64,000 nucleotides of DNA from Candidatus Dojkabacteria bacterium (GTDB taxonomy: Bacteria > Patescibacteriota > Dojkabacteria > J137): contig JBDTVZ010000003.1 of assembly GCA_040006935.1 (NCBI GenBank), forward strand, positions 1,102 through 65,101, given 5' to 3'. Positions 3,337 to 25,011 of the stretch are shown one piece after another. The notes under the pieces are model-generated. The model did not search any database. It worked only from the letters and a program-made list of their open reading frames with translations, and was not told the DNA's origin. The position numbers were made by a program, and so were the translations under genes. Within the stretch, counting starts at the first letter, position 1; every line of letters begins with the position of its first letter.

Positions 3337-3951
3337 TTAACTTTCTGTTACCAACATTTTTAAGATTTCATCTTGCGGTGGAATTAAATTGTTATCGACC
3401 ATATGTTTTATATAGCCATGCATTGCCTGCCTGTAAACTGGGTTCCTCAAATGTTTGAGTAACGGTTCAAAAAATATCTCGGGAATTTGTTCTAAGACCG
3501 ATAAGATATCTGCCAAACTATGCCATTCCCATCTGCCCATCTTATCTTTCTCATTCTCTGGGACAGGATAAAAGGGTTGAGGATCATGTACGAACGAAAT
3601 TTGTGGAGACATAGCATAAACATCATCAACTATAATTTCATCTACAAGATAGATTAAATCAATTTTATCTCTTGCTGAAATTCCTGATTCTTCCAATGTT
3701 TCTCTTTCTATTGTATCTACTATTGTTTTATCACTTGGATCTCTCTTACCACCAGTTACTTGTAAGCCTCCTCTTAGTCCAAATCTTTCACTTAGGAGAA
3801 TTTGCAATTTACCAGATCCAGGTGCTGCGCATAAGATAGTTTCTGTGCCACCAGGAATACATCTCTCCGGCAATCTCCGCAGTTGATCATCTTCATATGA
3901 TCTAATTTCTTGCTTTACAGTAGCAGGGCCTAAATCGATTAACGGTGCCAT
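3337..3951 (-). CDS. Nudix hydrolase
   Basis: Nudix box GGKRDPSDKTIVDTIERETLEESGI, matching Gx5Ex7REUxEExGU. Confidence 0.7.
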   Translation of the reverse strand: MAPLIDLGPATVKQEIRSYEDDQLRRLPERCIPGGTETILCAAPGSGKLQILLSERFGLRGGLQVTGGKRDPSDKTIVDTIERETLEESGISARDKIDLIYLVDEIIVDDVYAMSPQISFVHDPQPFYPVPENEKDKMGRWEWHSLADILSVLEQIPEIFFEPLLKHLRNPVYRQAMHGYIKHMVDNNLIPPQDEILKMLVTES

Positions 3952-6944: not shown

Positions 6945-7035
6945 TTCGCAGGATAAACTTCGTACCGACCTCGGGCTTACCTGCCTGCGTGGCTGCGCCA
7001 GCAGTCAGGCAGGTGAGTCCCACGTTTTCTAAAAT
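6945..7035 (-). repeat. partial tRNA-Met duplicate (anticodon arm to degenerate T-arm) with a 34-nt hairpin insert in the anticodon loop
   Basis: Read on the minus strand: ...CGTGGGACTCA[34 nt]TAAGCCCGAGGTCGGTACGAAG... The genuine tRNA 18 nt away reads CGCGGGACTCATAAGCCCGAGGTCGGCAGTTCGA. The insert CCTGCCTGCGTGGCTGCGCCAGCAGTCAGGCAGG (6980-7013) is an imperfect palindrome with an 8-bp outer stem. Confidence 0.6.
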
Positions 7036-7047
7036 TATTAATGATAA

Positions 7048-7121
7048 TATCAGAGGGCAGGATCGAACTGCCGACCTCGGGCTTATGAGTCCCGCGCTCT
7101 AACCAACTGAGCTACTCTGAT
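7048..7121 (-). tRNA. tRNA-Met (anticodon CAT); elongator Met or Ile2(LAU) type not distinguishable
   Basis: Manual cloverleaf: acceptor ATCAGAG/CTCTGAT with discriminator A, D-arm GCTC/GAGC, anticodon loop CTCATAA, T-arm GGCAG-TTCGATC-CTGCC. 74 nt. There is an A31:G39 mismatch in the anticodon stem. Confidence 0.75.
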
Positions 7122-8019: not shown

Positions 8020-8095
8020 TATTTCCGTTGATCTTCAGGTTACCTGCCTGCGTGGCTGCGCCAGCAGTCAGGCAGGTGAGCCTGACTCCAAGTCC
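8020..8095 (-). repeat. partial tRNA-fMet duplicate with the same 34-nt hairpin inserted in the anticodon loop
   Basis: Minus strand reads ...GGAGTCAGGCTCA[34 nt]TAACCTGAAGATCAACGGAAATAGGGGCTTTTT... The genuine tRNA-fMet reads GTCAGGCTCATAACCTGAAGGTCATCCGTTCGAATCGG...AAAGCCCCTATA. The insert at 8043-8076 is identical to that at 6980-7013. The duplicate even includes part of the tRNA's downstream terminator. Confidence 0.6.

Positions 8096-8377: not shown

Positions 8378-8378
<1 letters not shown>
8341..8378 (-). terminator. intrinsic terminator immediately 3' of tRNA-fMet
   Basis: 9-bp perfect stem GCCCCTATA/TATAGGGGC with a 4-nt loop (8353-8374). On the minus strand it follows tRNA-CCA-AAA and is followed by TTTTTATTATAA. 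An A-run and T-run flank it on both strands, so it may work bidirectionally. Confidence 0.7.
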
Positions 8379-8452
<74 letters not shown>

Positions 8453-8506: not shown

Positions 8507-8642
8507 CCCTCTCCTTTCAAGGAGAGGGCTAGGGTGAGGTCATACCGCACCGAAAACTCGTAATAGTTTTTGTGCGGTCCTTATTAGTTTTGCAAATTGA
8601 ATGAGATTACTTCCTCGTCTGTAACTCCTGGCAATGACACCG
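8507..8642 (+). repeat. structured intergenic repeat, copy A (H1 hairpin + GGGTGAGGTC...stem...GGTCC core + AATGAGATT...GCAATGACACC tail)
   Basis: H1 is CCCTCTCC-TTTCAA-GGAGAGGG. The core is GGGTGAGGTCAT-ACCGCAC-CG-AAAACT-CGTAAT-AGTTTT-T-GTGCGGT-CCTTATT. The tail is TTTGCAAATTGAATGAGATT...GGCAATGACACC. Copy B at 40036-40178 is collinear. Confidence 0.65.
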
Positions 8643-8675
8643 AAGTTTATGAGACCCCTCTTTTAATTGTTTTTT

Positions 8676-9086
8676 TTACATTAAAAGTTTAACCCACCAA
8701 TCTGTGTAATCTTTTTTCAAACCTAAATCTAATAATTCCTTTTGCTCATCTAAATAGACAGGCTTTTCTTTTGTTTGGAAAAGTCTTTCATTATCGGAAG
8801 CATAATTTGAGGTTTCTCTAAGTATCAATTTCCTATATTCATCTGACGATACAAAGGTATTCTCCTTCTGTAAATCATCATTTTTTGCAGTAATTTCATC
8901 TAAACTTACCTTCTCGCTTAAAAAAGTTTCGTAATTAGATTTTCCATTTGTTATTACCCTGATTATGTTCACACCCATAATGAAACTTAATGTGAGCATA
9001 AAAATAGTTAAAGGAACTCCTTCAATTACTATTGAATTCTTATAGGATACTATTTGTTTTTTGATATATTTGTAAAGCTTTCTCAT
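8676..9086 (-). CDS. hypothetical membrane protein (N-terminal TM, short coiled coil; FtsB/DivIC-like architecture)
   Basis: 136-aa ORF. TM helix LTIFMLTLSFIMGVNIIRVI followed by a predicted coiled segment (DDLQKEN). No firm family match. Confidence 0.4.
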   Translation of the reverse strand: MRKLYKYIKKQIVSYKNSIVIEGVPLTIFMLTLSFIMGVNIIRVITNGKSNYETFLSEKVSLDEITAKNDDLQKENTFVSSDEYRKLILRETSNYASDNERLFQTKEKPVYLDEQKELLDLGLKKDYTDWWVKLLM

Positions 9087-9162: not shown

Positions 9163-10014
9163 ATGAATAATGAAGATTTAATCAATAAATTTATTGAATA
9201 TTTAAAACGAAAGGGTAGGTCCGAATCCACTCTCATCGCTTATAAGGCCGACATAATCCAGCTTAGTCATAGTTCGACTAAAAATTTAATTAATTCCGGC
9301 GAAACTGAGATAAATAGTTTCTTAAAAAGACTTAAGGAAAATACAGGATTAACTCCTAAAACAATTTCTAGAAAATTGAACAGTATTAAAACTTTCTATA
9401 AATTTCTAGAGCTTAAGAATTTGGTAAATTCCAACCCTACCAAGGAATTACATCACCCTAAATTTATTAATGCTAAACCTAAATTCTTAAATAAAGATCA
9501 ATATCAAAGATTAAAGGATTCTGCTAAAGCGAGTCCAAAGAATTTTATGATGTTGGAACTTATGCTTCAAACAGGAATGAGAATTAGTGAAGTTTCGAAT
9601 TTAAAGATTAAGGATGTTGACTTAAATCGAGCTCATCCAAGAGTTGAAATTCGTGATAATAAAATAGTAACAAGACAAATTCCTTTAAATGACAAAATCT
9701 TTTTTGAACTAAAAGATTATATTTCTAGTATTGGCAAATCTGATTATGTGTTTACTACTAAGAATAATAAACCTATTGAGGTTCGGAATATTAGAGCTGC
9801 TTTAGATAGAGTGTTCTTGAAAGTAAAGTTACAACAGTACTGTGTTAATGATCTTAGAAATACCTTCATTGTAACGCAACTATCAAATGGCATGAAAATG
9901 TCTGCTTTAGCTAAGATTGTAGGCCATAAAAGCCCTACCGCAACAGAAAGGTACGTAGATATCTTATCTAGGAAGTATAAAGACAGAGGGATAGAGAGTC
10001 TATGCGAGTTATAA
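9163..10014 (+). CDS. tyrosine-type site-specific recombinase/integrase (XerC/XerD family)
   Basis: 283 aa. N-terminal core-binding (SAM-like) domain. C-terminal catalytic region with R...LRNTF...GHKSPTATERYVD (H-x-x-R ... Y). The gene ends 29 nt from the 3' end of tRNA-Ile. Confidence 0.8.
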   Translation: MNNEDLINKFIEYLKRKGRSESTLIAYKADIIQLSHSSTKNLINSGETEINSFLKRLKENTGLTPKTISRKLNSIKTFYKFLELKNLVNSNPTKELHHPKFINAKPKFLNKDQYQRLKDSAKASPKNFMMLELMLQTGMRISEVSNLKIKDVDLNRAHPRVEIRDNKIVTRQIPLNDKIFFELKDYISSIGKSDYVFTTKNNKPIEVRNIRAALDRVFLKVKLQQYCVNDLRNTFIVTQLSNGMKMSALAKIVGHKSPTATERYVDILSRKYKDRGIESLCEL

Positions 10015-10042
10015 AATCTCCTTTGTTAGATTGATGATACAA

Positions 10043-10116
10043 TAGGCCTTCGCGGACTCGAACCGCGGACCCCAGCTTTATAAGAACTGTGCTCTAACCA
10101 GCTGAGCTAAAGGCCT
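10043..10116 (-). tRNA. tRNA-Ile (anticodon TAT/UAU)
   Basis: AGGCCTT-TA-GCTC-AGCTGGTTA-GAGC-A-CAGTT-CTTATAA-AGCTG-GGGTC-CGCGG-TTCGAGT-CCGCG-AAGGCCT-A. Canonical 74-nt cloverleaf with UAU in the anticodon position. Confidence 0.8.
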
Positions 10117-10170
10117 ATGAATGAGTAATGAGAGTATAGCAAAATCTTCTTTACGATACCAGATTGAGAG

Positions 10171-11274
10171 TCAAATCTCCTTCAATAAGTTGTTAGTTCT
10201 ACGGACTGACCCTTCACCCTTTGAATAAACCACAGGGTATCCTACTTCTGTATGATAGTCTGTATTACCAACGGAAATACCTCCTCGAATATTTAACATG
10301 GGAGCATCATTACCTATAAAAGTTGTTGTTTGGGGAGTATCTCCAATTTGTATACTTTCAATTCCATCTGTATTTATTCCATATCGGTCGTAGACCGATA
10401 TGATGTAGTCATTAACTAGATCTCTACAAGCTCTCTTATTAACGGAAACATCAACAATATCAATATTAGGTCTACTTGCAGAACCAGCAAAATAAATTCC
10501 CCAAGTTTGAGTTAGGATTCTGAATGCTTGTAGTAGAGTCATCCTATCTATAACTAATACACCTGTTACTTCCAACCACTCATCCTGAAGTGCTTTATTT
10601 TCAAGTATAAGGTTAAAATCTAAGCCAAAATTAACTCTTGTACCCATTGCAGAAATTAATGCAAAATCTCCGATTTTATATTGAGCTTCTGCTATATTTG
10701 TAGGTTCAAAAAATTTATCACCACCTATCCATTGTGGAGTTAAGGTTACTAGTTCTTCTCGAGTTTCCTTAGCTGTAGTTGCTCTTAGAAGATCAGATAC
10801 ATCAGTATCGGAAACATTTTCCCAGAACGATATTGGCAATAAAGTACTATTAATGAATTCTGCTTCAGTAGAAAATAAATCCCAAGAATTTGCTCCGTTA
10901 CAATTAGACATAACAAATATTAAAGGGGTTCTGCCGTCTCTGCAAAGTAATCTTCCAGCTGTATCATAAGATAGTTCCCCTGCTCTCTCTAAAATCTTTT
11001 TTCTAATGTGTTCACCTAGTACAAATGCCGATTTATCTCGCGCTGTGATTATCGAAATTGCTTCTCCATTCAAAGCATCCTCAATTAGGAGTTGAATATT
11101 CTCATTGTCTAAGTCACTTTGTTGAGTTTCATCAAAGCGAAAATCACCATCATACGTAACTCCATGCTCGCTCACAGTATGATCATAATCAAAATGCTTT
11201 ACTCTTGCTCTTGGAATTATAACCTCACGTAATTCCTTCACAACACCATCGACTGGTGAATAAAAATTCGACAT
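10171..11274 (-). CDS. hypothetical protein
   Basis: 367-aa ORF, good coding length, no TM and no recognisable motif. Last gene of the long minus-strand string. Confidence 0.45.
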   Translation of the reverse strand: MSNFYSPVDGVVKELREVIIPRARVKHFDYDHTVSEHGVTYDGDFRFDETQQSDLDNENIQLLIEDALNGEAISIITARDKSAFVLGEHIRKKILERAGELSYDTAGRLLCRDGRTPLIFVMSNCNGANSWDLFSTEAEFINSTLLPISFWENVSDTDVSDLLRATTAKETREELVTLTPQWIGGDKFFEPTNIAEAQYKIGDFALISAMGTRVNFGLDFNLILENKALQDEWLEVTGVLVIDRMTLLQAFRILTQTWGIYFAGSASRPNIDIVDVSVNKRACRDLVNDYIISVYDRYGINTDGIESIQIGDTPQTTTFIGNDAPMLNIRGGISVGNTDYHTEVGYPVVYSKGEGSVRRTNNLLKEI

Positions 11275-11335: not shown

Positions 11336-11450
11336 AAGGCAGGCAGGGGGTGAGGTCCTACCTCCCCGAAAGCACGTTCTCTGCTTGGGAGGTCCATATT
11401 AGATTTGCTTTTCGAATCCCAAGGGACGCAGATCTGCGTAGCCTACACTA
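11336..11450 (+). repeat. structured intergenic repeat, copy E (core + short tail; H1 absent)
   Basis: AAGGCAGGCAGGGGGTGAGGTCCT-ACCTCCC-CGAAAGCACGTTCTCTGCTT-GGGAGGT-CCATATTAGATTTGC... The enclosing stem ACCTCCC/GGGAGGT covaries with ACCGCAC/GTGCGGT in copies A-C. Confidence 0.55.
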
Positions 11451-11477: not shown

Positions 11478-13931
11478 CTAAAACCCCGGGAATCCTCCTC
11501 CAAACATTCCTCCTGGTTTCTTTTCCTCAGTCTTTTCTTTTATGAAAGTTCCTCTTAATTTAATCTCATTCTCAATTAAGTTCTTATCTTTACCGTATTT
11601 CAATCTTGAGATTTGTCTTATTATATCTGGTAAATTTGGATCTGGGCTTGGATCAATCATATCGTATGGAGATTCTCCATACCAAGATCTCACTGTAAAT
11701 GTTGGAGTTGGTTTTCCATCAACTTGAATTTTTGTAAATGCTGTTCCGTTTTCGATTTGTTGTAAATCATTTTCTTCAAAATTTCCGTCTAAAACTTTTC
11801 GAAGGAAAGGCGCATCCTCTTCTCCTATTCTGAATATTGCTTTATTACCAACGTTACCAAAAACAGCATCTCTAATTTTATTATCACCTCCAGTTCTTGT
11901 TAACTGTCCTAAGAACTGGTGAGCAATTGTAAGTCCTAATTTGTACTTTCTGGCCTCAGATAAGATAATTTGAATTCCGTCTGTTAAGAAGTTCTGAAAC
12001 TCGTCGATGTATAAGTAGAAAGGAATTCTATCTTTTTCTGGAATTTCGTCTCTTTCCAAAGCTGCAACTAGAATTTTACCGATTAAAATCATTCCTAGAA
12101 GGTTTGCATTCATATCTCCTATTCTACCTTTTGAAAGCTTTGCGATAAGAATTTTCTTCTTATCCATAATATCTCTAAAGTCTATTGTAGAATTTTGTTG
12201 GGCAACAATTGGTCTTAAATATGCGTTTGTTAAGAATGGTGCAAGTTTAGAAACCACATACGGCACAACATTTTTAAGAGATGCCTCTCCTCCAGCTGCT
12301 TCTGCCTGTTTTCTCCAGAAGTCGATGACCTCTTGGTCTTTACACTTCCCTAATTTATAGTTTCTATAACCATCATCTGCAAAGATTTTTGGGATTTCTA
12401 ATAAAGTTGAACCTGACTCTACATCATCTGTTAAAAGCATAATTCCATATCTGAAATATTGCTCAAACATTGGACCTCCAGTTACTTTAAGGTTGTACAA
12501 AGTATCGAAAATATTCAACATTTCGTTTGTTACTAAGGTTCTCTGCTCTGGATTCCTAAACTCCAACATATTCAAACCTACTGGTCTTTCTAAGTCTGAT
12601 GGATCGAATATTACAACATCTTCAACTCGCTCTGGTGGAACTTGAGCCAAGATTTTTTCTGCATCGCTTCCGTGAGGGTCAATGAATGCACAACCATGCC
12701 CCATCTTAATATCTCTAATCATCATTCCTCCCATAAATCCAGATTTACCCGAACCTGTTTGTCCGATGATGTAGAAATGCCTTAAACGTGCATCTGGTTT
12801 TAGAAAAATTTCTTTTTCCTGTCCTCTAAAGGAATTTTTCCCAACATACATAAAATCCGTATCAAAATGACTAGTAGCGAAATCAGGGGCTGGAGCTTTC
12901 TTTGATAAAAGCCATTTGATGTGAGGGGCTTGAACATTTTTATTTGGATAGTGAAAAACCGTTGCAAGTTCTGCAGTATTCAAAATCATTGAGCCTCTAG
13001 GGATTCTGTAAATGAAGTCACTAGATATGGTTTTTACTACATCACCTTTTAATTTTTTAAATTTATTTCCTCCGATTTTACCGTATTGATCAAACGAACT
13101 CATAATATTCGTTAGGTGTGATTCTCCTGAGAATTTATCTGGAGAAACTACAACGACTCTAATATCAGCATGGAAACCATTTTTATCTGCTTTCTTTTCA
13201 ATAAGTTGTAAAGTTTCGTCTGGGACTTTTTGTTTCGGTGTTACAGCTGGCTTACCTTCTGCAGCTTCTTTTGGTTTTGCATCATCCCTAATTTTTTTAA
13301 CATAATCCTTAGAGTTTTTAATCCATTCCCCGCCTGCTGGTGAAATGACCAATTGAAGTGCGGCTGCTTCTCCATCACCTAACTTACTGAAAATGTCTGT
13401 GATTATAGCCATAGTATCCACTGGAAGCTCCTCGTAAGTTTGTATGGGAATTTTAGTATCTTTATCGAGCCCTATTGCTGCGTAGGTGACCTTTGCATGG
13501 TCCGGGAATAAGTTATACTCCTTAACTCTTGTAATCTCCGCTGTAGGATATGCTCCATTAATCTGCCTGTCTATTACGGACGCAATTTTTTTAGGACAAA
13601 CAACATAAAATCTAATACTCTCTTTAAATGCTACAACTTCAAAACTTACAAAAGTTCGAGCACCTATAAATGCTTTAATTCCTGTTAAGCTTTCGCTAAA
13701 GCCAAGAAGACCGAGGAACATTTGCTCCGCTGCCTTGATTTCGACATCGTTTGTTTTAGGTAATCGAATTTCGTAAAACACAAGGTTCAAAGATTTTCTC
13801 ATTAGAACAGCTTCTTTGAAATCTTGCAGAAGTCGTCTGAAAACAAATACAAGCACTACAAAAACTAAAATTGCTAAAGCAAATCCGGTAATGAGAATTA
13901 GAAATGTGTTTTGAGTGTTGTTATCCAACAT
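11478..13931 (-). CDS. VirB4/TrbE/CagE-family type IV secretion ATPase
   Basis: 817 aa. N-terminal TM helix, then an N-terminal domain of about 390 aa. Walker A IIGQTGSGKSG, Walker B LYIDEF. ARKYKLGLTIAHQ region typical of the VirB4/TraC family. Confidence 0.8.
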   Translation of the reverse strand: MLDNNTQNTFLILITGFALAILVFVVLVFVFRRLLQDFKEAVLMRKSLNLVFYEIRLPKTNDVEIKAAEQMFLGLLGFSESLTGIKAFIGARTFVSFEVVAFKESIRFYVVCPKKIASVIDRQINGAYPTAEITRVKEYNLFPDHAKVTYAAIGLDKDTKIPIQTYEELPVDTMAIITDIFSKLGDGEAAALQLVISPAGGEWIKNSKDYVKKIRDDAKPKEAAEGKPAVTPKQKVPDETLQLIEKKADKNGFHADIRVVVVSPDKFSGESHLTNIMSSFDQYGKIGGNKFKKLKGDVVKTISSDFIYRIPRGSMILNTAELATVFHYPNKNVQAPHIKWLLSKKAPAPDFATSHFDTDFMYVGKNSFRGQEKEIFLKPDARLRHFYIIGQTGSGKSGFMGGMMIRDIKMGHGCAFIDPHGSDAEKILAQVPPERVEDVVIFDPSDLERPVGLNMLEFRNPEQRTLVTNEMLNIFDTLYNLKVTGGPMFEQYFRYGIMLLTDDVESGSTLLEIPKIFADDGYRNYKLGKCKDQEVIDFWRKQAEAAGGEASLKNVVPYVVSKLAPFLTNAYLRPIVAQQNSTIDFRDIMDKKKILIAKLSKGRIGDMNANLLGMILIGKILVAALERDEIPEKDRIPFYLYIDEFQNFLTDGIQIILSEARKYKLGLTIAHQFLGQLTRTGGDNKIRDAVFGNVGNKAIFRIGEEDAPFLRKVLDGNFEENDLQQIENGTAFTKIQVDGKPTPTFTVRSWYGESPYDMIDPSPDPNLPDIIRQISRLKYGKDKNLIENEIKLRGTFIKEKTEEKKPGGMFGGGFPGF

Positions 13932-13950
13932 AATAATTTATAATTGAATA

Positions 13951-14511
13951 TTACTTTTCTGCCAATTCTTTAATAAACTTATCCCATAGAACGCTTAGCC
14001 ACCTTTCGGAGGATTTATCATCTTTCTGTGCATTGGCTGCTATGAATTTTTGAGCTTTATTAACATCTGTAGGATCAAAAACTTTAGGATAAAACCCATC
14101 TCCAAAAGGAATATCAATTTTAGGTTCTATAACAGCTTGCTTAGGAGCAATGTTTCTTACTGCTAAATCAGAGGGGGCAGCAGGAGTTGAAACTTCTTTT
14201 GATTTTTCAACTTGCTTTTCTATTTCAAATTTTTTTTCTAAATTAGCATCAAGTTGCTTAAAAGAACTATCTGGCATTGCAGGCATCACTGGCATTGATT
14301 CTACTCCACTCGATGCTTTAGATGGGTCTATCAATTTTGTTTTTACGAAGTTATAAGCTACGTTCAAAAGGACAACTTGACCATTAGGTGCAATTACCAA
14401 AGGTTCTTTAGTTTCGCTAAGTCCAAAAAATTTAAATTCAAATTTTTCAACAGTCTTTAAAATTTCTAAGATTTTTGGATCTGTTATAGATTGAAGTGCA
14501 GTTTGATTCAT
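13951..14511 (-). CDS. hypothetical protein
   Basis: 186-aa ORF directly downstream of the virB4-like gene. No motif recognised. Confidence 0.4.
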   Translation of the reverse strand: MNQTALQSITDPKILEILKTVEKFEFKFFGLSETKEPLVIAPNGQVVLLNVAYNFVKTKLIDPSKASSGVESMPVMPAMPDSSFKQLDANLEKKFEIEKQVEKSKEVSTPAAPSDLAVRNIAPKQAVIEPKIDIPFGDGFYPKVFDPTDVNKAQKFIAANAQKDDKSSERWLSVLWDKFIKELAEK

Positions 14512-14563
14512 AAGTCGTAAATACTTTAAAACAAATACATTCTATCATCTATTTATGATTATT

Positions 14564-15016
14564 TTATCTATATTTTTTCATATCTTGCTCTATGATTCTC
14601 TTCTGTTCTCTCTCTTTTATCTTTTGTCTTTTTTCGTATTTCTTTTTACCTTTTACTAATCCAATTTCTAATTTAATTAAACCTCTGTCATTTGTATATA
14701 CTTGAAGAGGAACAACTGTGGTCCCAGCTGTTTTTAAATTTTCAATTAATTTTCTAATTTGATTTTTTTGAAGCAATAACTTTCTCTCCCTCAGTTCCAA
14801 AAGTTTATCTTGGATGAAAGAAGAAGCTAAAAGTCCAATTCTAGAACCCATTAGAAATAATTCACCATTTCTCTCTCTTATAAAAGCATTTGTAATATTT
14901 GAATTCCCGTTTTTTAAAGATTTAACTTCCCAACCAAATAAAACTATTCCAGCTTCAATCTTATCGATAACCTCATAGTTAAAGTATGCTTTTTTGTTAT
15001 TAATCAGAATTTTCAT
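14564..15016 (-). CDS. smpB: SsrA-binding protein
   Basis: KKAYFNYEVIDKIEAGIVLFGWEVKSL...LLLQK...VPLQVYTNDRGLIKLEIGLVKGKKKYEKR matches SmpB. Start trimmed to the internal Met (MKILINNKK). Confidence 0.85.
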   Translation of the reverse strand: MKILINNKKAYFNYEVIDKIEAGIVLFGWEVKSLKNGNSNITNAFIRERNGELFLMGSRIGLLASSFIQDKLLELRERKLLLQKNQIRKLIENLKTAGTTVVPLQVYTNDRGLIKLEIGLVKGKKKYEKRQKIKEREQKRIIEQDMKKYR

Positions 15017-15087
15017 ATTAGGATTATACAGCCAATACAAAAAAAACTGCACATTTCTGTGCAGTTTAACTTCATTTTATATTTCAA

Positions 15088-15828
15088 TTATCTTCTTAAT
15101 GATTCACTCGTACTGATAATAGATTGTAACTGAGAGACGATATCTTCTAGCTTCCCTCTTTCGAAATCACTTAAATTTTCTCTATTCTCTTCAATTGCAT
15201 TTTCTAAAAAATTAAGAGCATTTTCAACATAAGCCATATGCTTAATAACACCAAACCTACCACTATTCATCTCAATAAGTGATTGTATCCTCCTATCAAA
15301 AACAGCTTTTCTACCAAACATATTCAGAAGGTCTTGATTAGAATCTCCTGTTAAATTCTCAACTTCTCTTATATCTGATGCTTCAGCACCAAATTCATTT
15401 GAATATGAAGCTTTCTTTTCATCAAAAAATTCTTTTGCCCTATCACTTCCTGCAAAGAAACCTTGAGTAAAAAGAGGCGTAAGTAAAATTGCAGATGTAT
15501 CGACCACCACCTCGCTTAAAGTGTCATTTGAATTACGAATAATACTTTGCATCTCTAACTGAAGAGTATCTAATTTTTCATTAAAGTCTTGCACAGCTGT
15601 ATTTAGACTAATCACCCTTGAATCAAACAAATCTGGATTCATTGAATCATCATAAGGCATAAATTCTTGACTTAAGACTCCCATTAAAACAACTGATTTT
15701 TGATAAGCTTTATAGAGCTGTACCAATTGCTCATCTGGAGTACCTTCAAGATTCTCAAATTTTCTTATTAAAACTCCCGCTTCTTCTAAAGTTGGGCTTC
15801 TTAACGACTCTTCTACTGGCAAATTCAT
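15088..15828 (-). CDS. hypothetical protein
   Basis: 246-aa ORF with no TM and no recognised motif. Confidence 0.4.
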   Translation of the reverse strand: MNLPVEESLRSPTLEEAGVLIRKFENLEGTPDEQLVQLYKAYQKSVVLMGVLSQEFMPYDDSMNPDLFDSRVISLNTAVQDFNEKLDTLQLEMQSIIRNSNDTLSEVVVDTSAILLTPLFTQGFFAGSDRAKEFFDEKKASYSNEFGAEASDIREVENLTGDSNQDLLNMFGRKAVFDRRIQSLIEMNSGRFGVIKHMAYVENALNFLENAIEENRENLSDFERGKLEDIVSQLQSIISTSESLRR

Positions 15829-15880
15829 AAGGTAAATTTATAAATAATTAATTGATATTATAGCATTTCACCTTAGTGTC

Positions 15881-18397
15881 TTACAAATCCAATCTAATTA
15901 CTTTAGTCCCATCTAGTACATAAATTGCACTTTCAGATTGGACTACAACAACTTCATCCAAGTCACTGAAGGTTGTCGAATCACTTCCTCTATAATCGTA
16001 TTGTTTAACGAAGTTTATTTTTGCATCGTCAGAATCATCATATTTGAATAATAGAACTCTTCTATTAACCGGATCTCCGACTACAAGATTATTATCTGCA
16101 ACATCTATTGAACTGGCACCTTTTAATGCCTCAAAGTCTGTGTTTAGTAAATTAGTAAATGAGTCAGCAGTCAAAGTATTATCTCCTCCAGCTAAGTATC
16201 TTTTAATTCCTTGAGTTTTTATTAATACCCAAATATCTCTTGGAACGGAAATATCCAAGGCATTTGCAAAATCTGGATCATCTTTCCAATCTGTTTCTGG
16301 ATCTGTTGAAGGTGCTGCTCCTCCAGCAACATAGCCATCATCTTGTGCATTTCTTCTAAATATTTGCCTACTTGTTTGTCTAACTTCGTATAAAGCATTG
16401 TTACCATCATATAGAGCTGCCTCCATTGGCTTTCCTACGCTTGCTGGTGTAAGACCTGCAAATCTTTTTAATGTTGGATCTCCTCCAATGCTAAATTTAC
16501 CTACTGAGCTAGTAGCATCATTATCGTAAAAGATAATATCCCCATCTACATTCCTCACCAATAAGAAAGGTTGTGTTAATCCAGTTGCATATGCTTGTGG
16601 TTGAGCATTAAGGGCATTTGAAGCTACTTTGTAAACAACTCCCCTGGCAGAATCGCTTATGTAAAGATTTCCATTAGAATATACAATGTCCGAAAGTGTA
16701 GCATCCGGGAAATTCTTACCTACATCTGTAACTATCTTTGGGTCTATAACTGCAGTAACTAGCAGAAGATCATCCTGTCTGGACTGAACTTGTTTAGATA
16801 AGTTGTCTAACTCTGTAGTAAATAACCCGGCTCTTTGTTGTAATGAAATATCACTTGTAAGCTTTTGTAATTCATTCAAAAGTAGAGTTTTTTTCTCTTG
16901 ACCTTCGTTTTTAGCCTGAAGAATTTGTGGGGTCAAAGTATCTAAACGATTTCTTAGGTTTGTTAGTTGAGTACTGGCAGTATTAATTTTTTCTTGTTTT
17001 TGCCTAGCATCATCTGCATTTTTTATTCCAACATAAATTAATACAAGTAATACGACGACGACAACTGCCAAAATAATTCGATTTCTCCTTCTTCTTTTAG
17101 CTTTTACCACTCTATCTCTCCTATCATCCGTGCCTATAATCTCTCGTTTAAATAGTTCTAATAATTGATCTAGAACGGATTTAATTCTACTACCAATGTT
17201 TTTTAAGATTTTTGCATATGTTTTATTATTACTCTTTAAAGCTGGCACTACTTTATTTTGAAAAATACTTGAGGCTTTATTTTTAGCTAAATTAGCTTTA
17301 TTAGCTATATTTGTCATTGTTGTAGCTTCTTTAACAACTTCATAATTATTCTCATCGTCTTCAAGAACATAGTTAGTAAACTTCTTATCTTCCATAGGTT
17401 CAAGATCATCTTGGATAGTGAATGTTTCACTCTGAGAAGTTATTCCTTGTGGTTGTCGAAAATTTTTAACTTTTGTAAAAGCTTGTGAAACTAAGGCTGA
17501 AGATTTGATTTTCAGATTACTACCTACTTCCTTTACTTTATTTAAATACTTTGTTGCAGTATTTTCAGGAGCTACATAAATACTTTCATCTTGTTCGGGT
17601 TGAATCGTTGCCGCAGGCGATATATCTTCTTCCACTAAGTGATCTAGGCTTTTATCTACTTTTGGGAGTTGAGCTTCTGCATCTTCAATTGTTTCAACTG
17701 TAAGTTCTTTATCTACCATTGCGGTCTCTTCCTTTGGCATTTCTGTTTGTGGAATAAACCACTCTGCTTTTTCATCTGCTAATATTAAGAATGCAGCTCC
17801 TGTTATGGTTTCTAATTCTTTTAATTTAGAAATATTAAGTTCTTCTAATGTTTCTTGAATAATAAACTCGCCTTTTTCTATAGATTTTGAAGTACCTAAA
17901 CACAGTCTATCTTCCTCTTTTAACTCAACACTTCCAGTTTTAAAGAACCCGAGCATATTAGAATCTACTAGGCCTTTAGAAAGCTCTACAAACTTATTTG
18001 CTCTTTTAATAAAAATCTTGCTCTCGCCTACAACGGCTAGATAAGCAATATTATTTTCGACTACTACAATTGCCATTTCTATGTCTAAACCCTCTTCCGA
18101 AAGACTAGGCTCACGAGACAAAACGTACTCCATCTTGGATTTCATTTTCCAGACAGAATCTTCTAATTTCTCAATATTATCTGTAAATTCTTTTTTTGGA
18201 TTAAAGTAAGTGCCTTGAAGCTCATCTAGAAGAATTTTAGCTATATTCTCAAGACTATATTCGTCTTTCTCTACTGCTATTCTCACTGTTACGAACATTT
18301 CTGCATTAGAAGAGGTATCGTCAGGTCTATATCCATAGACGCCAGACCACTCATTCTCTTTCAATTTTCCAATAAGGTATTCTGCTTTTAATGTCAT
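15881..18397 (-). CDS. large single-pass membrane protein with extracytoplasmic repeat (NHL/beta-propeller-like) C-terminal domain
   Basis: 838 aa. Central TM helix RIILAVVVVVLLVLIYVGI preceded by a basic stretch (KAKRRRRNR). Coiled-coil region after the TM. C-terminal segments such as NGNLYISDSARGVVYKV and NNLVVGDPVNRRVLLFK look like NHL-type repeats. The N-terminal cytoplasmic domain is unassigned. Confidence 0.5.
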   Translation of the reverse strand: MTLKAEYLIGKLKENEWSGVYGYRPDDTSSNAEMFVTVRIAVEKDEYSLENIAKILLDELQGTYFNPKKEFTDNIEKLEDSVWKMKSKMEYVLSREPSLSEEGLDIEMAIVVVENNIAYLAVVGESKIFIKRANKFVELSKGLVDSNMLGFFKTGSVELKEEDRLCLGTSKSIEKGEFIIQETLEELNISKLKELETITGAAFLILADEKAEWFIPQTEMPKEETAMVDKELTVETIEDAEAQLPKVDKSLDHLVEEDISPAATIQPEQDESIYVAPENTATKYLNKVKEVGSNLKIKSSALVSQAFTKVKNFRQPQGITSQSETFTIQDDLEPMEDKKFTNYVLEDDENNYEVVKEATTMTNIANKANLAKNKASSIFQNKVVPALKSNNKTYAKILKNIGSRIKSVLDQLLELFKREIIGTDDRRDRVVKAKRRRRNRIILAVVVVVLLVLIYVGIKNADDARQKQEKINTASTQLTNLRNRLDTLTPQILQAKNEGQEKKTLLLNELQKLTSDISLQQRAGLFTTELDNLSKQVQSRQDDLLLVTAVIDPKIVTDVGKNFPDATLSDIVYSNGNLYISDSARGVVYKVASNALNAQPQAYATGLTQPFLLVRNVDGDIIFYDNDATSSVGKFSIGGDPTLKRFAGLTPASVGKPMEAALYDGNNALYEVRQTSRQIFRRNAQDDGYVAGGAAPSTDPETDWKDDPDFANALDISVPRDIWVLIKTQGIKRYLAGGDNTLTADSFTNLLNTDFEALKGASSIDVADNNLVVGDPVNRRVLLFKYDDSDDAKINFVKQYDYRGSDSTTFSDLDEVVVVQSESAIYVLDGTKVIRLDL

Positions 18398-18475
18398 GCA
18401 ATAGTGCTAAAAATAGGTACGCTTATACAGTATATAATCATTATCCTTCAATTTGAAGTAGTATTTAAAAAGTTT

Positions 18476-18718
18476 TTATCCAATCGGAAGTATTATTATA
18501 AAAATCAACACACTGGCCAGAACGATAGTGTACACCAAGGCTACAAAATTCAGAAAGAATTTATCCGGTGTTTTTATAATATTATTCATCCTCAACATTT
18601 GCCTGACTAATATTAAACCGGCGAGTAAGTGGACAAGTGCAAATACTATTGCAGCTATACGGACTATTTGGATTGCGGAAGAATTAAAATTAAGCTCCAT
18701 CTCTAAAAGTTCTAGCAA
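18476..18718 (-). CDS. possible small two-TM membrane protein
   Basis: 80-aa ORF with two hydrophobic helices, sitting in the gap between the 838-aa and PH-domain genes. It overlaps the 3' end of the upstream gene. Weak support. Confidence 0.25.
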   Translation of the reverse strand: MLELLEMELNFNSSAIQIVRIAAIVFALVHLLAGLILVRQMLRMNNIIKTPDKFFLNFVALVYTIVLASVLIFIIILPIG

Positions 18719-19364
18719 TTCTTGCTAGGTCTGAAATAATATCTCTAACTCTTGTAGGGTTAGCAATAAAGAAAAAATGAATTGTACCGTTACTATTTTC
18801 TGTTGTTATATCTACATTACCATAATTAAAGAAACTTGAAAGTACTCCAGGTGAATTTTGTTTTACACTTTCAATATTTTCTAAAGGAATTTCGTCTACA
18901 GAATAAGATGCGAAAGTTTTTAGATTAAAGTCCAATACCCTCTCATTTGTAACTATATATGTGTCGAAATACCAGTCAATGAAGTTTTTAAATGCGTTTG
19001 TAAATATGAATGAATAATATGCAAGTATAATTACAATGTAGAGCCTTAAACTTAACTCAGGGAGTAAAGGACTGAAAATGTTAAATACGACTGCAAATAT
19101 TATTGGAATTAAAGAATAGAAGATCGTCGAAACAATCCAACCAAAATTCCTTAACCAATGCCTCCTTGCTAAAATATAAATTCTTTCGTCAGGGTTTTGA
19201 CCATCAAATTTTGCTAAAGGTTTTAATTGAATGCTACTAAATCCCCAGCCTTTTTTTTGAGGTACAACACTTTCCATTTCTTGCCTCAAAGCTTGTTTCA
19301 TTTGAGCTCTAAGACTAGTTCTGTCTTCTGAAGAGAAAGTGGATGTTGTAGGTATGTTTGACAT
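18690..19364 (-). CDS. bacterial PH-domain (YdbS/YdbT-like, bPH_2) membrane protein
   Basis: Two TM helices, then a membrane-flanked PH-like region (YIVTNERVLDFNLKTFASYSVDEIPLENIESVKQ). Its start overlaps the stop of the upstream gene (ATGA). Confidence 0.5.
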   Translation of the reverse strand: MSNIPTTSTFSSEDRTSLRAQMKQALRQEMESVVPQKKGWGFSSIQLKPLAKFDGQNPDERIYILARRHWLRNFGWIVSTIFYSLIPIIFAVVFNIFSPLLPELSLRLYIVIILAYYSFIFTNAFKNFIDWYFDTYIVTNERVLDFNLKTFASYSVDEIPLENIESVKQNSPGVLSSFFNYGNVDITTENSNGTIHFFFIANPTRVRDIISDLARIARTFRDGA

Positions 19365-21115
19365 TACTGGACTTCTAAATAAAATGTTTGACTATAAATA
19401 TAATCATATGTTCCCATATCCGATGCCCAAGAGTTCCAAAGGTTTTTAAACCACCAACCTCCTAAAGATCTTGAACCTCCATTTGGCCCTGTAAACCAAA
19501 CTTTTTTAACTCTTTGAGATGGATCTCTTTCAAATGAAATTGATGAGATACTACCTCCGATATCACTGATTATAGAATTTAAATAAGACTTTGTCGAATT
19601 GTCGTAATAGTTTGTTGAAGCATTGTATAAAATCATACTTTTTACTCCATCCAAGTTATGCTGATTTGTTGTTGCTTGCCAATATGTATAATAAGTTGCT
19701 GTTGCTAAACCTGTATCATTTACTGATCTTAAATAAGGCAGAGCTGCTCCATCACCTTGTAAGTTCTGAAATATTGTATCGTTATTTGCAGTACCATTCC
19801 CTTGGCTATTATCTGCTGAGTAAAGTGCTTGAATTATAGAACCTCCGTAAGTTAATACTTGACCTCTAGTCTCATCCGCTGCCCATTGAGCATAATGTGT
19901 ACCATTATAAACTTGAGATCTCGCATCTGAATGGAGGAATCCAGCATTATAAATACCATAAGTTCTAAATGCTACAGCTTGTGCCTTAATAGCCTCTTCG
20001 GGCCAACAGCTCCAACCAGATCCATTATCTAAAGCATATTTAGCAGGATTTTGATTTACTTGGTCTTGGTTTCCGCAAGCTCGTCCAGGAACTTCGCCCT
20101 CGCCTGCAACATAATCTTCAATGTTGATAGAACCATATCCTTCAACATTCACAGCACTATTCTCGTAACCACCGACTACATTAACTCCTGTGTAATAGAA
20201 TCTAAGTATATCTTGATATCCATAGCCTCTCGAACCCATCCCATGTGCTCCCCATTGGCTCATTCCAACTCCGTGACCTTGATATAAATCTCTACCTTGG
20301 CTTCTAAATATAAATCCGCCATTTACTGGAATAGAAGGAGTTACTTGTGGCGGTGGATTGGCAAGGATTTGATCTTCCCTTTGCCTTGCTGCTTGTTGTG
20401 CTGCTTCTAATCCATCAATATTCTGTTGAATATTTTGAATTGATGCACCCAGACTATTAGCTTCTGCACTTCCTGAAGCTAATGCACCATTGTAATACGC
20501 AATACGATCTTCTAATTCTTTTTTCTTACTGGCAAGAGTTACTTTTAAATCTTCTAATTCTTTTATTTTACTATCGTAACTATCTATATCTGTAGAGAGT
20601 TTTTTTAAGTCAGATGCTATTGAAAAAATATTTCTTTGCTGTGCACCTGTTAGACTACTTGAATATTGCTCTATTTTTTTATAATCGAATTCTGTATTTA
20701 TAAATTGACCTAAGTCTAATCTGTTACCGCGCCAATCCATATAGGAAGTCTTCAGTGTTTCCTGTTGATCTATTTGCCTTTGCTGCCTTTCTAATTCTTT
20801 AAGTTTTTTACCTTGCTTAGCCACATCAAGCTCAAGTGTTTTTGCTTTAATTTCGGACTCATTTTGTTCTAACTCTGCCTGTAATTTAGGTAATTCTCCA
20901 GTAGTGGCATCAATAGTTGCTTGATAGTCCTTAAGCGTACTTTGAAGTTGGGCTAAATCATTTTGTGACTGAGTTAGTTGTTCTTGTTGTGCTGCAATAT
21001 CGTCTGCAATTTCCTGCGAAGTTTGTGCAAACGAAATAGGACTGATTGCAAATATGGTAATTGCGAAGAAAGCTCCTACAATAGTCACTTTTGTTTTAAT
21101 ATTTCTAATTTTCAT
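19364..21115 (-). CDS. SpoIID/LytB-domain cell-wall remodelling protein with N-terminal signal peptide and long coiled coil
   Basis: C-terminal YQGHGVGMSQWGAHGMGSRGYGYQDILRFYYTGVNV matches the SpoIID/LytB signature (GHGVGMSQxGA...IL..YY.G). N-terminal TM/signal, then a coiled coil of about 200 aa. Confidence 0.7.
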   Translation of the reverse strand: MKIRNIKTKVTIVGAFFAITIFAISPISFAQTSQEIADDIAAQQEQLTQSQNDLAQLQSTLKDYQATIDATTGELPKLQAELEQNESEIKAKTLELDVAKQGKKLKELERQQRQIDQQETLKTSYMDWRGNRLDLGQFINTEFDYKKIEQYSSSLTGAQQRNIFSIASDLKKLSTDIDSYDSKIKELEDLKVTLASKKKELEDRIAYYNGALASGSAEANSLGASIQNIQQNIDGLEAAQQAARQREDQILANPPPQVTPSIPVNGGFIFRSQGRDLYQGHGVGMSQWGAHGMGSRGYGYQDILRFYYTGVNVVGGYENSAVNVEGYGSINIEDYVAGEGEVPGRACGNQDQVNQNPAKYALDNGSGWSCWPEEAIKAQAVAFRTYGIYNAGFLHSDARSQVYNGTHYAQWAADETRGQVLTYGGSIIQALYSADNSQGNGTANNDTIFQNLQGDGAALPYLRSVNDTGLATATYYTYWQATTNQHNLDGVKSMILYNASTNYYDNSTKSYLNSIISDIGGSISSISFERDPSQRVKKVWFTGPNGGSRSLGGWWFKNLWNSWASDMGTYDYIYSQTFYLEVQ

Positions 21116-22638
21116 TATGCAAAATTTATTAAAAGAACTTGTCGAGATTGCATTAAATTATTTACAAAATCTAAGATTTCCTGAACAAAGTTACAATTTA
21201 CAATTAAAATTGGTAATAGGTTAGTATTTACATTTACTGACCCACTCTCTCTACCCATTTGTTCTAAAATTTGTGCTTCTAACTCTGGCTTCATTTTACC
21301 TTCTAAACTAAATTCTATATTTTCTTTTTCTATTTTTAAGATATCAACTTCCCTTCTCTTTTTATAATATTCTTCTGTATTAATGCTTTTTGATTCGATC
21401 TCTTTCAATTTAGAATCTGTGTCTATTTGTTCTTTTAAAAGTTTTGTCTTTCCCTCAGATAACTGTGTCAAATTCTTATCTCCTAGTCGTGTGTTCATTG
21501 TTGTTTCGATAAGAGATAACTCACCTTGCAATGCGTTTACCCATGCTGTGTTTAGAATCAACCTATTTTCATCTAAATCCATTTTAGGTGATAGTTGATT
21601 GTTCGAATCAACATCTACATCATCATTGGTAAACCTACCTTCATATCTATTAGCATACCTATTGATGTTCACTAGCAACATCAATACTAGCAAAGTTACA
21701 GCACTAAATAATCCTATAAATAATTGTACCAGTTGAAGTGTAATTATAAAAAATAGTAATGAAAATATACATTGCAGAACTACAAGTGCAACCATCCATT
21801 TTGCTATGAATAAAGGCATCTCTGGGCCTTCTTCTTCTATGTTTCTACCTGGAGTTTTTTTTACAGTTCGAAGATTTGAAGCTAACATTTGTGATCTGCT
21901 TTCTTTTATTTTTTCAACTTTTTGTGAGATTGTTGAGTCCGTTGTAATATTATTAAATTTTGTTAGCTCTTGTTTAATTCTATTCTGAGATTCTATAAGC
22001 ATATTTACCGACGAGAGTTTATCGTCGATAGCTTTCACTTCACGATCTATTCGTTCTTTATCTTTTTTAATTTCTTCTTTATTTTTCTTCTCATTTTGAT
22101 AAGAACTCACCTCAACTTCCATATTCTTTATCTTGACGCTTACTTCTCTATATCTAACTAACTTATCTGATTCTTCCTTGGAAAGTCCCTGTGAAGCTTG
22201 AGTTACAAGGGCTTCTATATTCCCGTCAGGTGAATTATTGATAGGTAAAAATTTTGAAGTTAATTCAGCTAAATTTGTAATTCCTGCTTTATTACAATCG
22301 AGGATTATTTCTTTCCAGGATTCATTATTAATATTCAAACCTGTTTTTTCTGAAAGGATTTGATAGATATTCCCAGGAGTTTCGATACTATTTACAAGAA
22401 TTTTCAGGGTTTTTGTTTGATAGTCCTTTACAAGAGTAATTTTTTCATTTAGTAATTGCATTTCTATTTCCGATGTTTGAATTGTATTGGTTTCTGGGAA
22501 ATTAGTTAGCGAAATTAAATCATTAACTAAAAAAACTAACTTAGAAGATGGAGATAATGTATTTCGAAAATCAATTTCAAAAGTCTCTGATTGTGTTATG
22601 ACTACTCTATATTTTGATATAGACAAAGAATAAGTCAC
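21115..22638 (-). CDS. hypothetical coiled-coil membrane protein
   Basis: 507 aa. Central hydrophobic segment (LFIAKWMVALVVLQCIFSLLFFIITLQLVQLFIGLFSAVTLLVLMLLV). Flanking K/E-rich coiled-coil regions. Its stop overlaps the downstream start. Confidence 0.5.
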   Translation of the reverse strand: MTYSLSISKYRVVITQSETFEIDFRNTLSPSSKLVFLVNDLISLTNFPETNTIQTSEIEMQLLNEKITLVKDYQTKTLKILVNSIETPGNIYQILSEKTGLNINNESWKEIILDCNKAGITNLAELTSKFLPINNSPDGNIEALVTQASQGLSKEESDKLVRYREVSVKIKNMEVEVSSYQNEKKNKEEIKKDKERIDREVKAIDDKLSSVNMLIESQNRIKQELTKFNNITTDSTISQKVEKIKESRSQMLASNLRTVKKTPGRNIEEEGPEMPLFIAKWMVALVVLQCIFSLLFFIITLQLVQLFIGLFSAVTLLVLMLLVNINRYANRYEGRFTNDDVDVDSNNQLSPKMDLDENRLILNTAWVNALQGELSLIETTMNTRLGDKNLTQLSEGKTKLLKEQIDTDSKLKEIESKSINTEEYYKKRREVDILKIEKENIEFSLEGKMKPELEAQILEQMGRESGSVNVNTNLLPILIVNCNFVQEILDFVNNLMQSRQVLLINFA

Positions 22639-22733
22639 CCTATTTTAATTATAATAGTTAAAGTGCATATATATTCTACCGCAATGAAAGTATTGATGCT
22701 AGTAGTTCGTTAAGAAGATAGTCAATTTTTATA

Positions 22734-23486: not shown

Positions 23487-23968
23487 AGGTTAGGCTTGAC
23501 TGTATTTGGAATAACGTTATTGATTTCGTTTAAATCTCCTCCAACACTTGCGTTAAAGAATGCAAGGATAATAACTATTCCAATAATACCAATGAACAAA
23601 GCAGCTATACCTATAAATACAGATTTAATAGCTTTTTGTGCTTCTTGAATTTTTGTATCGTCACCTTCACTCCTAATGTATTTGATTGCAGCTCTTATAA
23701 TTATGTAAATTGAAACTACAATAATACCAATGAAGATTAATTGTAATGCTAATCTTACTAGGGAAACTCCTGCTCCAACAGCAACCGATCCGTCAACTTG
23801 ATCTCCGCACAATGTACCTGCTCCAAAGCCTAGGTTTTGAATAAATGGAAATATTGTACAAATCAAATTCTGTGCATGGACTGGCATTGCAAACAATATA
23901 TTATTTAAACTGAACAATGAAAATACTAATGTTGAGATTGCAAATATTTTCTTTGAGATATCTTTCAT
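23483..23968 (-). CDS. pilin-like two-TM protein paralog 2
   Basis: Signal peptide. TM1 - IRSEGDDTKIQEAQKAIKSVFIGIAALF - TM2. 4-nt overlap with the upstream gene. Confidence 0.55.
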   Translation of the reverse strand: MKDISKKIFAISTLVFSLFSLNNILFAMPVHAQNLICTIFPFIQNLGFGAGTLCGDQVDGSVAVGAGVSLVRLALQLIFIGIIVVSIYIIIRAAIKYIRSEGDDTKIQEAQKAIKSVFIGIAALFIGIIGIVIILAFFNASVGGDLNEINNVIPNTVKPNL

Positions 23969-24034
23969 GAATTGTTAATTAAAATATACTTTTATTTATA
24001 TTATAAGAATTATCCTGTCAATGTCAAAAAGAAT

Positions 24035-25009: not shown

Positions 25010-25011
25010 TT

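Follow-up and report, generated by a model that had tools for sequence, protein, structure and literature searches.

We analysed a 64,000-nucleotide (nt) stretch of a Candidatus Dojkabacteria genome (contig JBDTVZ010000003.1, positions 1,102 to 65,101; hereafter the window, 64 kb) and found that a family of five intergenic repeats, copies A to E, is probably (we put this at about 60%) a composite interspersed DNA repeat and not an RNA gene. Each full element would combine a class II intrastrand triplex motif, made of a first hairpin (H1) and a G-rich third strand, with a second hairpin (P2). The strongest covariation in the family links the purine arm of H1 with the G-rich segment that follows it, in an antiparallel purine–purine mirror relation that is not Watson–Crick pairing. 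Most of the element belongs to an already known class of DNA repeats without an explained function; what is new is that a second hairpin is conserved, that a single genome has several covarying variants and that the host is a member of the candidate phyla radiation (CPR).

An initial annotation of this DNA had listed five intergenic copies, and all five were confirmed as homologous and lie on the + strand (Table 1). With filters off, a covariance model of the five cores recovered only copies A–E from the window (69–80 bits; best other match, 18.9 bits). The elements have a G+C content of 45–57%, against 33% for the window. Copies A and C are identical at 44 of 44 arm positions (H1 arms, G-rich segment and P2 arms) while the P2 interior, the tail and the upstream flank have diverged to 57%, 70% and 48% identity, respectively; the element arms are therefore under constraint. 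This bears out the earlier view of a real family with stems kept by compensatory change, as opposed to a decaying palindrome (loops and tail are 57–75% identical).

H1 is a perfect 8–10-bp hairpin that differs in sequence between copies A, C, D and E. It had been described as shared and covarying, which is correct for these four copies but not for the copy at 11336 (copy B), which has no H1 and appears to be a shortened or deleted copy. The 5′ arm of H1 is always pure pyrimidine and the 3′ arm always pure purine. The G-rich segment GGG(G)TGAGGT after H1 is the mirror image of the purine arm and varies together with it: when the two are read antiparallel, G always lies opposite G, and A lies opposite A or T. 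Four distinct purine-arm/third-strand variants occur in the window, one in copies A and C and one each in copy D, copy E and an inverted extra motif (E′) at 51720-51749. The sequence GAGGTC, which had been taken to be a conserved unpaired stretch, is GGGTTA in copy D and GAGTTA in copy E, and covaries with H1 by the mirror rule. Spacing is constant, with a 9-nt third strand followed by 3 nt (CAT, CCT or AAT) and then by P2.

Purine-motif triplexes are defined by G·G–C, A·A–T and T·A–T triads with an antiparallel third strand. In class II intrastrand triplex motifs, the pyrimidine arm, the purine arm and the third strand all lie on one strand (Holder et al. 2015, PMC4666352); we used the ITxF class II definition from that study. 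The arm order of the class (pyrimidine-rich arm, loop, purine-rich arm, loop, reverse-Hoogsteen arm) is present in copies A, C, D and E on the + strand and at 51720-51749 on the − strand. All five sites also have the class II stem (6–15 triads of these three types only, with at most one mismatch), with 8–9 triads and zero mismatches. Loop lengths fall within the ITxF range of 1–6 nt at four sites (loop 1, 3–4 nt; loop 2, 3 nt); loop 2 of copy D is 18 nt in length and contains its own hairpin (GTCCGC-CTTAT-GCGGAC).

A custom-written triplex finder reported exactly five sites in the window, the H1 regions of A, C, D and E and the inverted motif at 51720-51749, whereas 100 dinucleotide shuffles gave a mean of 0.1 sites and a maximum of 2. 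There are exactly five pyrimidine/purine hairpins of at least 7 bp in the window, and all five (5/5) have a full-length matching third strand. Each purine arm forms 8–9 valid triads with its cognate third strand, but only 4–7 with the third strands of other copies. Explanations of the G-rich segment as a direct repeat (only 4–7 matches) or as a Watson–Crick partner of the pyrimidine arm (4–5, copy E excepted) were rejected because they fit worse than the mirror relation. When only the local flanks were shuffled, P values per site ranged from 1.5e-4 to 2.4e-2.

Table 1 Coordinates of the repeat copies, their modules and their surroundings in the window. R–H, reverse-Hoogsteen; ORF, open reading frame; tmRNA, transfer-messenger RNA; P, flank-shuffle P value.
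Feature	Position	Strand	Details
Core, copy A	8528-8594	+	Covariance-model family
Core, copy B	11344-11409	+	Covariance-model family
Core, copy C	40067-40133	+	Covariance-model family
Core, copy D	43372-43436	+	Covariance-model family
Core, copy E	51655-51719	+	Covariance-model family
Triplex motif, copy A	8507-8540	+	Pyrimidine arm CCCTCTCCT 8507-8515; loop 8516-8519; purine arm AGGAGAGGG 8520-8528; loop CTA 8529-8531; R–H strand GGGTGAGGT 8532-8540; nine triads, no mismatch; P = 0.00045
R–H segment, copy B	11348-11356	+	GGGTGAGGT alone
Triplex motif, copy C	40046-40079	+	Pyrimidine arm 40046-40054; loop 40055-40058; purine arm AGGAGAGGG 40059-40067; loop TTG 40068-40070; R–H strand GGGTGAGGT 40071-40079
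Triplex motif, copy D	43335-43384	+	Pyrimidine arm CCTCCCCTT(A) 43335-43344; purine arm (T)AAGGGGAGG 43348-43357; loop 2 43358-43375; R–H strand GGTGGGGTT 43376-43384; nine triads
Triplex motif, copy E	51636-51667	+	Pyrimidine arm CCTCCTCTT 51636-51644; purine arm AAGAGGAGG 51647-51655; loop TCG 51656-51658; R–H strand GGAGGAGTT 51659-51667; P = 0.00015
Inverted extra triplex motif (E′), right of copy E	51720-51749	-	CCCCTCTT-TGTA-AAGAGGGG-TTA-GGGGAGTT (purine arm AAGAGGGG, third strand GGGGAGTT); eight triads; P = 0.0057
P2, copy A	8544-8578	+	Arms ACCGCAC 8544-8550, GTGCGGT 8572-8578; interior 8551-8571 with AAAACT/AGTTTT stem
P2, copy B	11360-11393	+	Arms ACCTCCC 11360-11366, GGGAGGT 11387-11393
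P2, copy C	40083-40117	+	Arms ACCGCAC 40083-40089, GTGCGGT 40111-40117
P2, copy D	43388-43420	+	Arms ACCGCAC 43388-43394, GTGCGGT 43414-43420
P2, copy E	51671-51703	+	Arms ACCGCCC 51671-51677, GGGCGGT 51697-51703
3′ flank and tail, copy A	8579-8670	+	Starts CCTTATTAG; 70-75% identical to copy C tail; no significant structure
3′ flank and tail, copy C	40118-40205	+	Homologous to copy A tail
Setting, copy A			Between tRNA-Met (8378-8452, -) and ORF 8676-9086 (-)
Setting, copy B			Between ORF 10171-11274 (-) and VirD4-like ATPase gene 11478-13931 (-)
Setting, copy C			Between tmRNA gene (39416-39862, -) and phosphoribosyltransferase-domain gene 40198-40896 (-)
Setting, copy D			Between convergent LexA-like S24 peptidase gene (+) and 81-amino-acid ORF (-)
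Setting, copy E			Between divergent fmt (-) and ileS (+)
Predicted promoter, tRNA-Met	8493-8464	-	Promoter scan; near copy A
Predicted promoter, tmRNA	39962-39934	-	Promoter scan; near copy C
Predicted promoter, fmt	51614-51586	-	Promoter scan; near copy E

P2 is a G+C-rich hairpin whose 7-bp outer stem is paired in 35 of 35 cells. Two of its columns are altered on both sides (G–C to T–A in B; A–T to C–G in B and E), and only 6 of 500 shuffles matched this pairing together with the double changes; slid controls were 29–51% paired. The two double compensatory changes had been noted before, with the variant stems assigned to the wrong copies: ACCTCCC belongs to the copy at 11360 and ACCGCCC to that at 51671. 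The P2 interior is hypervariable (19–21 nt). The inner stem that was thought to change while staying paired is clear in A, B and C, but its register shifts between copies and D and E have only 3–4 A–T pairs, so we rejected it as a conserved helix. Nor is CGAAA a conserved unpaired segment, being CAGAA in D and partly paired in A and B. Three further candidates were rejected: an outer helix GGTGAGG/CCTTATT that needs G–U pairs (80% paired compared with 77% in shuffles, and no better than slid controls), the tails of A and C as a structured module (fold z-scores near 0) and a likeness of GTGCGGT to the Haemophilus uptake-signal core, as this arm varies with compensation and is not conserved.

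Together, copy E and the motif at 51720-51749 form a series of triplex motif, hairpin and inverted triplex motif (51636-51749), and this fullest unit reads as an imperfect palindrome; copies A–D have no right-hand repeat, and an alignment gave no clear support for reading their tails as decayed right-hand triplex motifs. A small G+C-rich hairpin type, TCCGCC-loop-GGCGGA, recurs intergenically at 43359-43375, where it is inserted in loop 2 of the copy D triplex motif, and at ~45050-45063, ~45078-45100 and ~61252-61266; the region 61233-61289 also has a hairpin of the GTCATTTCGAG...TCGAGAAATC type.

Escherichia coli BoxC repeats, also called PIT elements and reportedly described by Hoyne et al. 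in 2000, have been redescribed as TMECO, with the pattern CCCTCNCCC N3-6 GGGNGAGGG N3 GGGNGAGGG (PMC4666352). DNA oligonucleotides of the TMECO type form stable triplexes by circular dichroism and nuclear magnetic resonance (NMR), and the motifs are always intergenic, sometimes occur as inverted pairs, are linked to small deletions and were not found to be tied to mobile elements (PMC4666352). In the window family the order of pyrimidine arm, loop, purine arm, 3-nt loop and reverse-Hoogsteen strand is the same, and the sequence of copy A (CCCTCTCC-TTTCAA-GGAGAGGG-CTA-GGGTGAGG) is nearly the same as that in E. coli (CCCTCTCCC-TGA-GGGAGAGGG-TTA-GGGTGAGGG). Both groups lie between genes, lack a linked transposase and include inverted pairs and truncated copies. 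The strict TMECO consensus had no match in the 64-kb window, so the elements are not TMECO in the strict sense; if each arm of the pattern is shortened by one base, copies A and C (by inspection) and the E. coli control fit, and D, E and E′ have other sequences. As positive controls, a BoxC-like query matched a median of 18 places per E. coli genome, and the triplex finder recovered an inverted BoxC pair in one E. coli genome.

The window family differs from BoxC/PIT/TMECO in its stems of 8–9 nt with four sequence variants in one genome, in the conserved second hairpin 3 nt past the third strand, in having all copies in one orientation and in its host, a 33% G+C member of the Patescibacteria (Dojkabacteria), whereas BoxC/PIT/TMECO occur in Proteobacteria or Cyanobacteria. 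The annotation had recognized no known motif, which holds for the second hairpin only, as the H1 part belongs to this class. The family shares with H-DNA the purine-tract mirror relation, the same reverse-Hoogsteen triads and the expectation that negative supercoiling favours the fold; however, the third strand of H-DNA is half of one strand of a duplex mirror repeat, whereas here an intrastrand hairpin would draw all three strands from one DNA strand. Like repetitive extragenic palindromic sequences (REPs) and the bacterial interspersed mosaic elements built from them, these are short, G+C-rich intergenic palindromes in mosaic arrangement, with hairpins kept by compensatory change, that would act at the DNA level. 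REPs, however, have no triplex module, and the window has no RAYT gene and, by inspection of the five copies, no GTAG head beside either hairpin.

The triplex module is widespread in other bacteria. When copy A was compared with plasmids and phages by BLAST, matches came from 31 plasmid records and one Microviridae genome and were confined to the triplex part (query 4-45). The four matches that we inspected obey the triad rule, each with its own variant and with a common 5′ ATT flank: GGGTGTGGT in the microvirus, GGGAGAGGT in Acinetobacter, arm AGGGGAGGG with third strand GGGTGGGGT in Photobacterium and GGGTGAGGG in Azospirillum. Photobacterium sp. GJ3 pGJ3-2 and Azospirillum brasilense p1 have a triplex motif, a central hairpin and an inverted triplex motif, the same architecture as copy E (51636-51749). 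The central hairpin begins a few nucleotides past the third strand; in Photobacterium this distance is 3 nt and the stem is 7 bp. Azospirillum has a further hairpin within loop 2, a feature shared with copy D. In sequence, the central hairpins bear no relation to that of the window, and these proteobacterial units keep both triplex motifs, whereas copies A–D of the window lost the right-hand one or never had it. An A/B/C-type core pattern, strict enough that copies D and E would fail it, had 0 matches in viral contigs; its two matches in Genome Taxonomy Database genomes and one in Joint Genome Institute metagenomes were all dismissed as chance by the covariance model. A broader core pattern also had 0 matches in viral contigs.

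The Microviridae genome (PQ006671.1) carries a perfect 9-triad motif, CCCTCTCCT-TGAA-AGGAGAGGG-CCA-GGGTGTGGT, at 3881-3913 of the record (2905-2937 of the examined stretch). It sits in a non-coding region of ~970 nt, on the same strand as all of the genes, which we take to be the packaged strand.

The covariation had originally been read as the mark of a functional RNA structure, a reading that the mirror covariation and several other results do not support. By inspection of all copies, 0 of ~70 stem pairs are G–T. The promoter scan found no promoter upstream of the copies on the + strand, only − strand promoters of neighbours, and a consensus scan found no canonical terminator at any copy, the sole nearby call being a 6-bp fragment of H1 (40063-40044, −). 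In the comparison with Rfam 15, under gathering and E-value thresholds, no family reached threshold for any copy; only four tRNAs and the tmRNA in the window pass the gathering threshold. Purine-motif triplexes cannot form in RNA, although pyrimidine-type intrastrand triplexes can (PMC4666352). We thus consider a structure at the DNA level on the + strand the most probable reading, given that RNA does not form the purine triplex, that a − strand triplex would have mismatches (see below), that G–T pairs are absent from the stems and that the scans gave no + strand promoter or canonical terminator at the copies.

A structured RNA on the + strand, either a small RNA or a cis-regulatory element in which H1 is joined by nested stems and P2/P3 serves as a terminator-like 3′ hairpin, would account for the strong predicted folds (z-scores of -6.7 to -2.5 in 4 of 5 copies), the compensatory changes in P2, the T-rich tract after P2 in A, D and E and the location of copy D downstream of a + strand gene. 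We nonetheless consider it quite improbable: RNA pairing does not explain the mirror covariation, the stems have zero G–U pairs, the outer helix that needs such pairs did no better than controls, promoter-like sites and Rfam families at threshold are missing, and an RNA from copies A, B or C, which have − strand genes on both sides, would be antisense.

The weak Rfam match of copy A that might favour such an RNA is to whalefall-1 (RF01762; 19.5 bits compared with a gathering threshold of 37); copies C, D and E have no match. Weinberg et al. (2010, PMC2864571) described this motif as an RNA, and a metagenome is its only known source. Its consensus, CuCuCC..GGaGaG..[24 nt]..GgGuGAGG, aligns with copy A over H1 and the G-rich segment and follows the purine-motif mirror rule in its own right, and its 24-nt insertion parallels loop 2 of copy D. 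The weak match would thus arise because the whalefall-1 consensus is such a triplex motif, and whalefall-1 may itself be a DNA repeat of the triplex type instead of an RNA.

The same elements could instead act as RNA on the − strand, in the 3′ untranslated region of the upstream gene, where the hairpins, possibly with a C+·G–C/U·A–U triple helix, would protect the mRNA 3′ end or block read-through into the next promoter. Their placement is compatible with this: copies A–D start 0–10 nt from the stop codon of a − strand gene (for copy D, its 3′ flank CCTTA provides the stop codon of the 81-amino-acid ORF, 43423-43668, −), copies A, C and E end 14–84 nt upstream of predicted − strand promoters (tRNA-Met, tmRNA and fmt), and a pyrimidine-type triplex is possible in RNA. 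The triads argue against it. Of the 13 A positions, 9 face a T in the third strand, which fits a purine motif on the + strand but gives − strand RNA an A where U is needed (A·A–U mismatches), and most of the remaining triads would be consecutive C+·G–C, which are disfavoured at neutral pH (PMC4666352). The − strand has no U tract after either hairpin, so these are not canonical terminators. Copy E has no upstream − strand gene, and the motif at 51720-51749 is in the opposite orientation; since it is flanked by two predicted divergent promoters, copy E need not be part of either neighbouring transcript. We judge a role as − strand RNA to be improbable.

A two-tetrad G-quadruplex (GG-N-GGG-N-GGG-N-GG) on the G-rich strand is highly improbable. 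Each variant does have four G runs in its purine arm and third strand, but a quadruplex has no need for A/T mirroring, yet 13 of 13 A/T positions mirror; it must also outcompete a perfect 8–10-bp hairpin, and NMR of TMECO gave a triplex and not a quadruplex (PMC4666352).

Several points weigh against a composite DNA repeat with a triplex motif. The triplex is predicted purely from sequence rules, and the perfect Watson–Crick hairpins would fold equally well as RNA from either strand. Copies A–D directly follow − strand genes and would be parts of 3′ untranslated regions if transcription reads through. A weak terminator would fit the moderately T-rich tract that follows P2 on the + strand of A, D and E (3–6 of 8 positions after P2 are T on the + strand, and the − strand has no T run). 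All five copies share one orientation (two-sided P = 0.06), of which the DNA model gives no account, and the five copies provide only four independent triplex variants. For E. coli TMECO, dimethyl sulfate footprinting in vivo showed no stable triplex, and no promoter, terminator or other function was found (PMC4666352), which leaves the class without a demonstrated mechanism.

We compared the window with ~120 kb from relatives (~75 kb non-redundant) with conserved synteny and Fmt proteins that are at most 63% identical. Neither a triplex motif nor a covariance-model match was present in the ~75 kb. At two sites of conserved synteny the elements occupy extra spacer DNA. The fmt–ileS spacer is 251 nt here and 85–189 nt in three relatives; in a fourth, L007, it is 398 nt and holds its own repeats. 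The genes for the S24 peptidase and the 81-amino-acid protein overlap in the relative L012 and here are 111 nt apart, with copy D in the gap. Absence at the syntenic sites indicates that the elements were gained in this lineage or lost elsewhere. L007 is the closest relative found (Fmt 63% identical), and its spacer (3700-3830) contains a (CTACAAC)n tandem array beside a G+C-rich segment; the fmt–ileS spacer is filled with different repeats in different lineages.

The empty syntenic sites, with spacers here longer by roughly the size of an element, raise the possibility of a non-autonomous mobile element, akin to REPs or miniature inverted-repeat transposable elements, the folded single strand of which would be the substrate of an enzyme that acts in trans and is encoded elsewhere, such as a recombinase or an HUH/Y1 transposase. 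Selection on the structure would then serve mobility and no host function; this explanation overlaps with the composite DNA repeat that we favour. The modular palindromic build is in keeping with it, as are the truncated copies (B, and the right ends of A–D) and the nearly identical triplex module, including the 5′ ATT flank, in distant phyla, plasmids and a single-stranded DNA (ssDNA) phage. We consider mobility possible but doubtful, however. The 64-kb window encodes no transposase, RAYT, Y1 transposase or reverse transcriptase, and its only recombinase is an ordinary tyrosine integrase (9163-10014); no target-site duplications were seen; copies are 57–75% identical outside the arms, which argues against a recent burst; and TMECO were not found to be associated with mobile elements (PMC4666352).

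If the element is a composite DNA repeat, its structure would probably form on the G-rich (+) strand when the DNA is single-stranded or strongly negatively supercoiled, conditions found at replication forks or in the wake of RNA polymerase at neighbouring promoters. Extrusion of the H1 and P2 hairpins would release the 12–15 nt between them, and the freed segment of the + strand could then fold antiparallel onto the purine arm of H1 as a third strand; in copy E both strands would be able to fold, one at each end. The likely effect would be local non-B DNA that absorbs supercoils, pauses polymerases or causes local instability and small rearrangements, and the fold might be recognized by an enzyme that copies, spreads or retains the element.

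Other features of the window were recorded. An identical 34-nt G+C-rich palindrome (CCTGCCTGCGTGGCTGCGCCAGCAGTCAGGCAGG) occurs at 6955-7030 and 8030-8095, with a diverged third copy at 39999-40030. The sequence around it partly repeats the anticodon stem-loop region of the tRNA-Met genes nearby (7048-7121 and 8378-8452), with the palindrome placed between the A and the T of the CAT anticodon, and each of these fragments resembles the tRNA beside it. Even when introns were permitted, ARAGORN called no tRNA at the fragments, which may be pieces of pseudo-tRNAs, remnants of attachment sites or targets for a small insertion element. The tRNA-Ile at 10042-10117 (−) has the anticodon TAT, unusual for bacteria, and adjoins the tyrosine integrase gene. 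The tmRNA gene (447 nt; 51.5 bits compared with a gathering threshold of 47) was not called by ARAGORN; SmpB is encoded at 14564-15052. A − strand gene cluster at 11478-28897 is a type IV secretion-like locus that encodes a VirD4/TraG-like ATPase, two proteins with type IV secretion system pilin domains, a SpoIID-domain protein, ClpB and many ORFs without a Pfam match.

Around ~51000-52000, at the divergent fmt/ileS pair between which copy E lies, the GC skew reverses sign and the genes change direction, and the region looks like an origin-proximal strand switch; the divergent arrangement is kept in relatives, and parA and parB lie at 55509-57303. A replication origin at copy E was rejected, as DnaA boxes do not cluster there (the window has 22 near-matches compared with 18.6 expected).

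To our knowledge, BoxC/PIT/TM repeats have been known since the 1990s and number thousands across bacteria, and we know of no established function for them. Several versions in one small genome, each with its matching third strand, show directly, from an evolutionary standpoint, that conservation extends to the capacity for triplex formation and not merely to the hairpin, and these variants are a ready set for third-strand swap experiments. They also illustrate that stem covariation in intergenic repeats is not by itself a sign of RNA. We tentatively suggest that the tracking of the purine arm by the third strand, across four variants here and further ones in Proteobacteria and an ssDNA microvirus, may be comparative evidence that an intrastrand DNA triplex coupled to a hairpin at fixed spacing is itself selected, as a folded ssDNA signal read by conserved machinery. 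If true, this could be a signal for, as examples, priming or replication restart, recombination or mobilization by an enzyme that acts on ssDNA, shared from CPR bacteria to Proteobacteria and phages. For CPR bacteria, the family would place structured repeat DNA in a streamlined 33% G+C genome, beside the promoters of tRNA, tmRNA and fmt/ileS.

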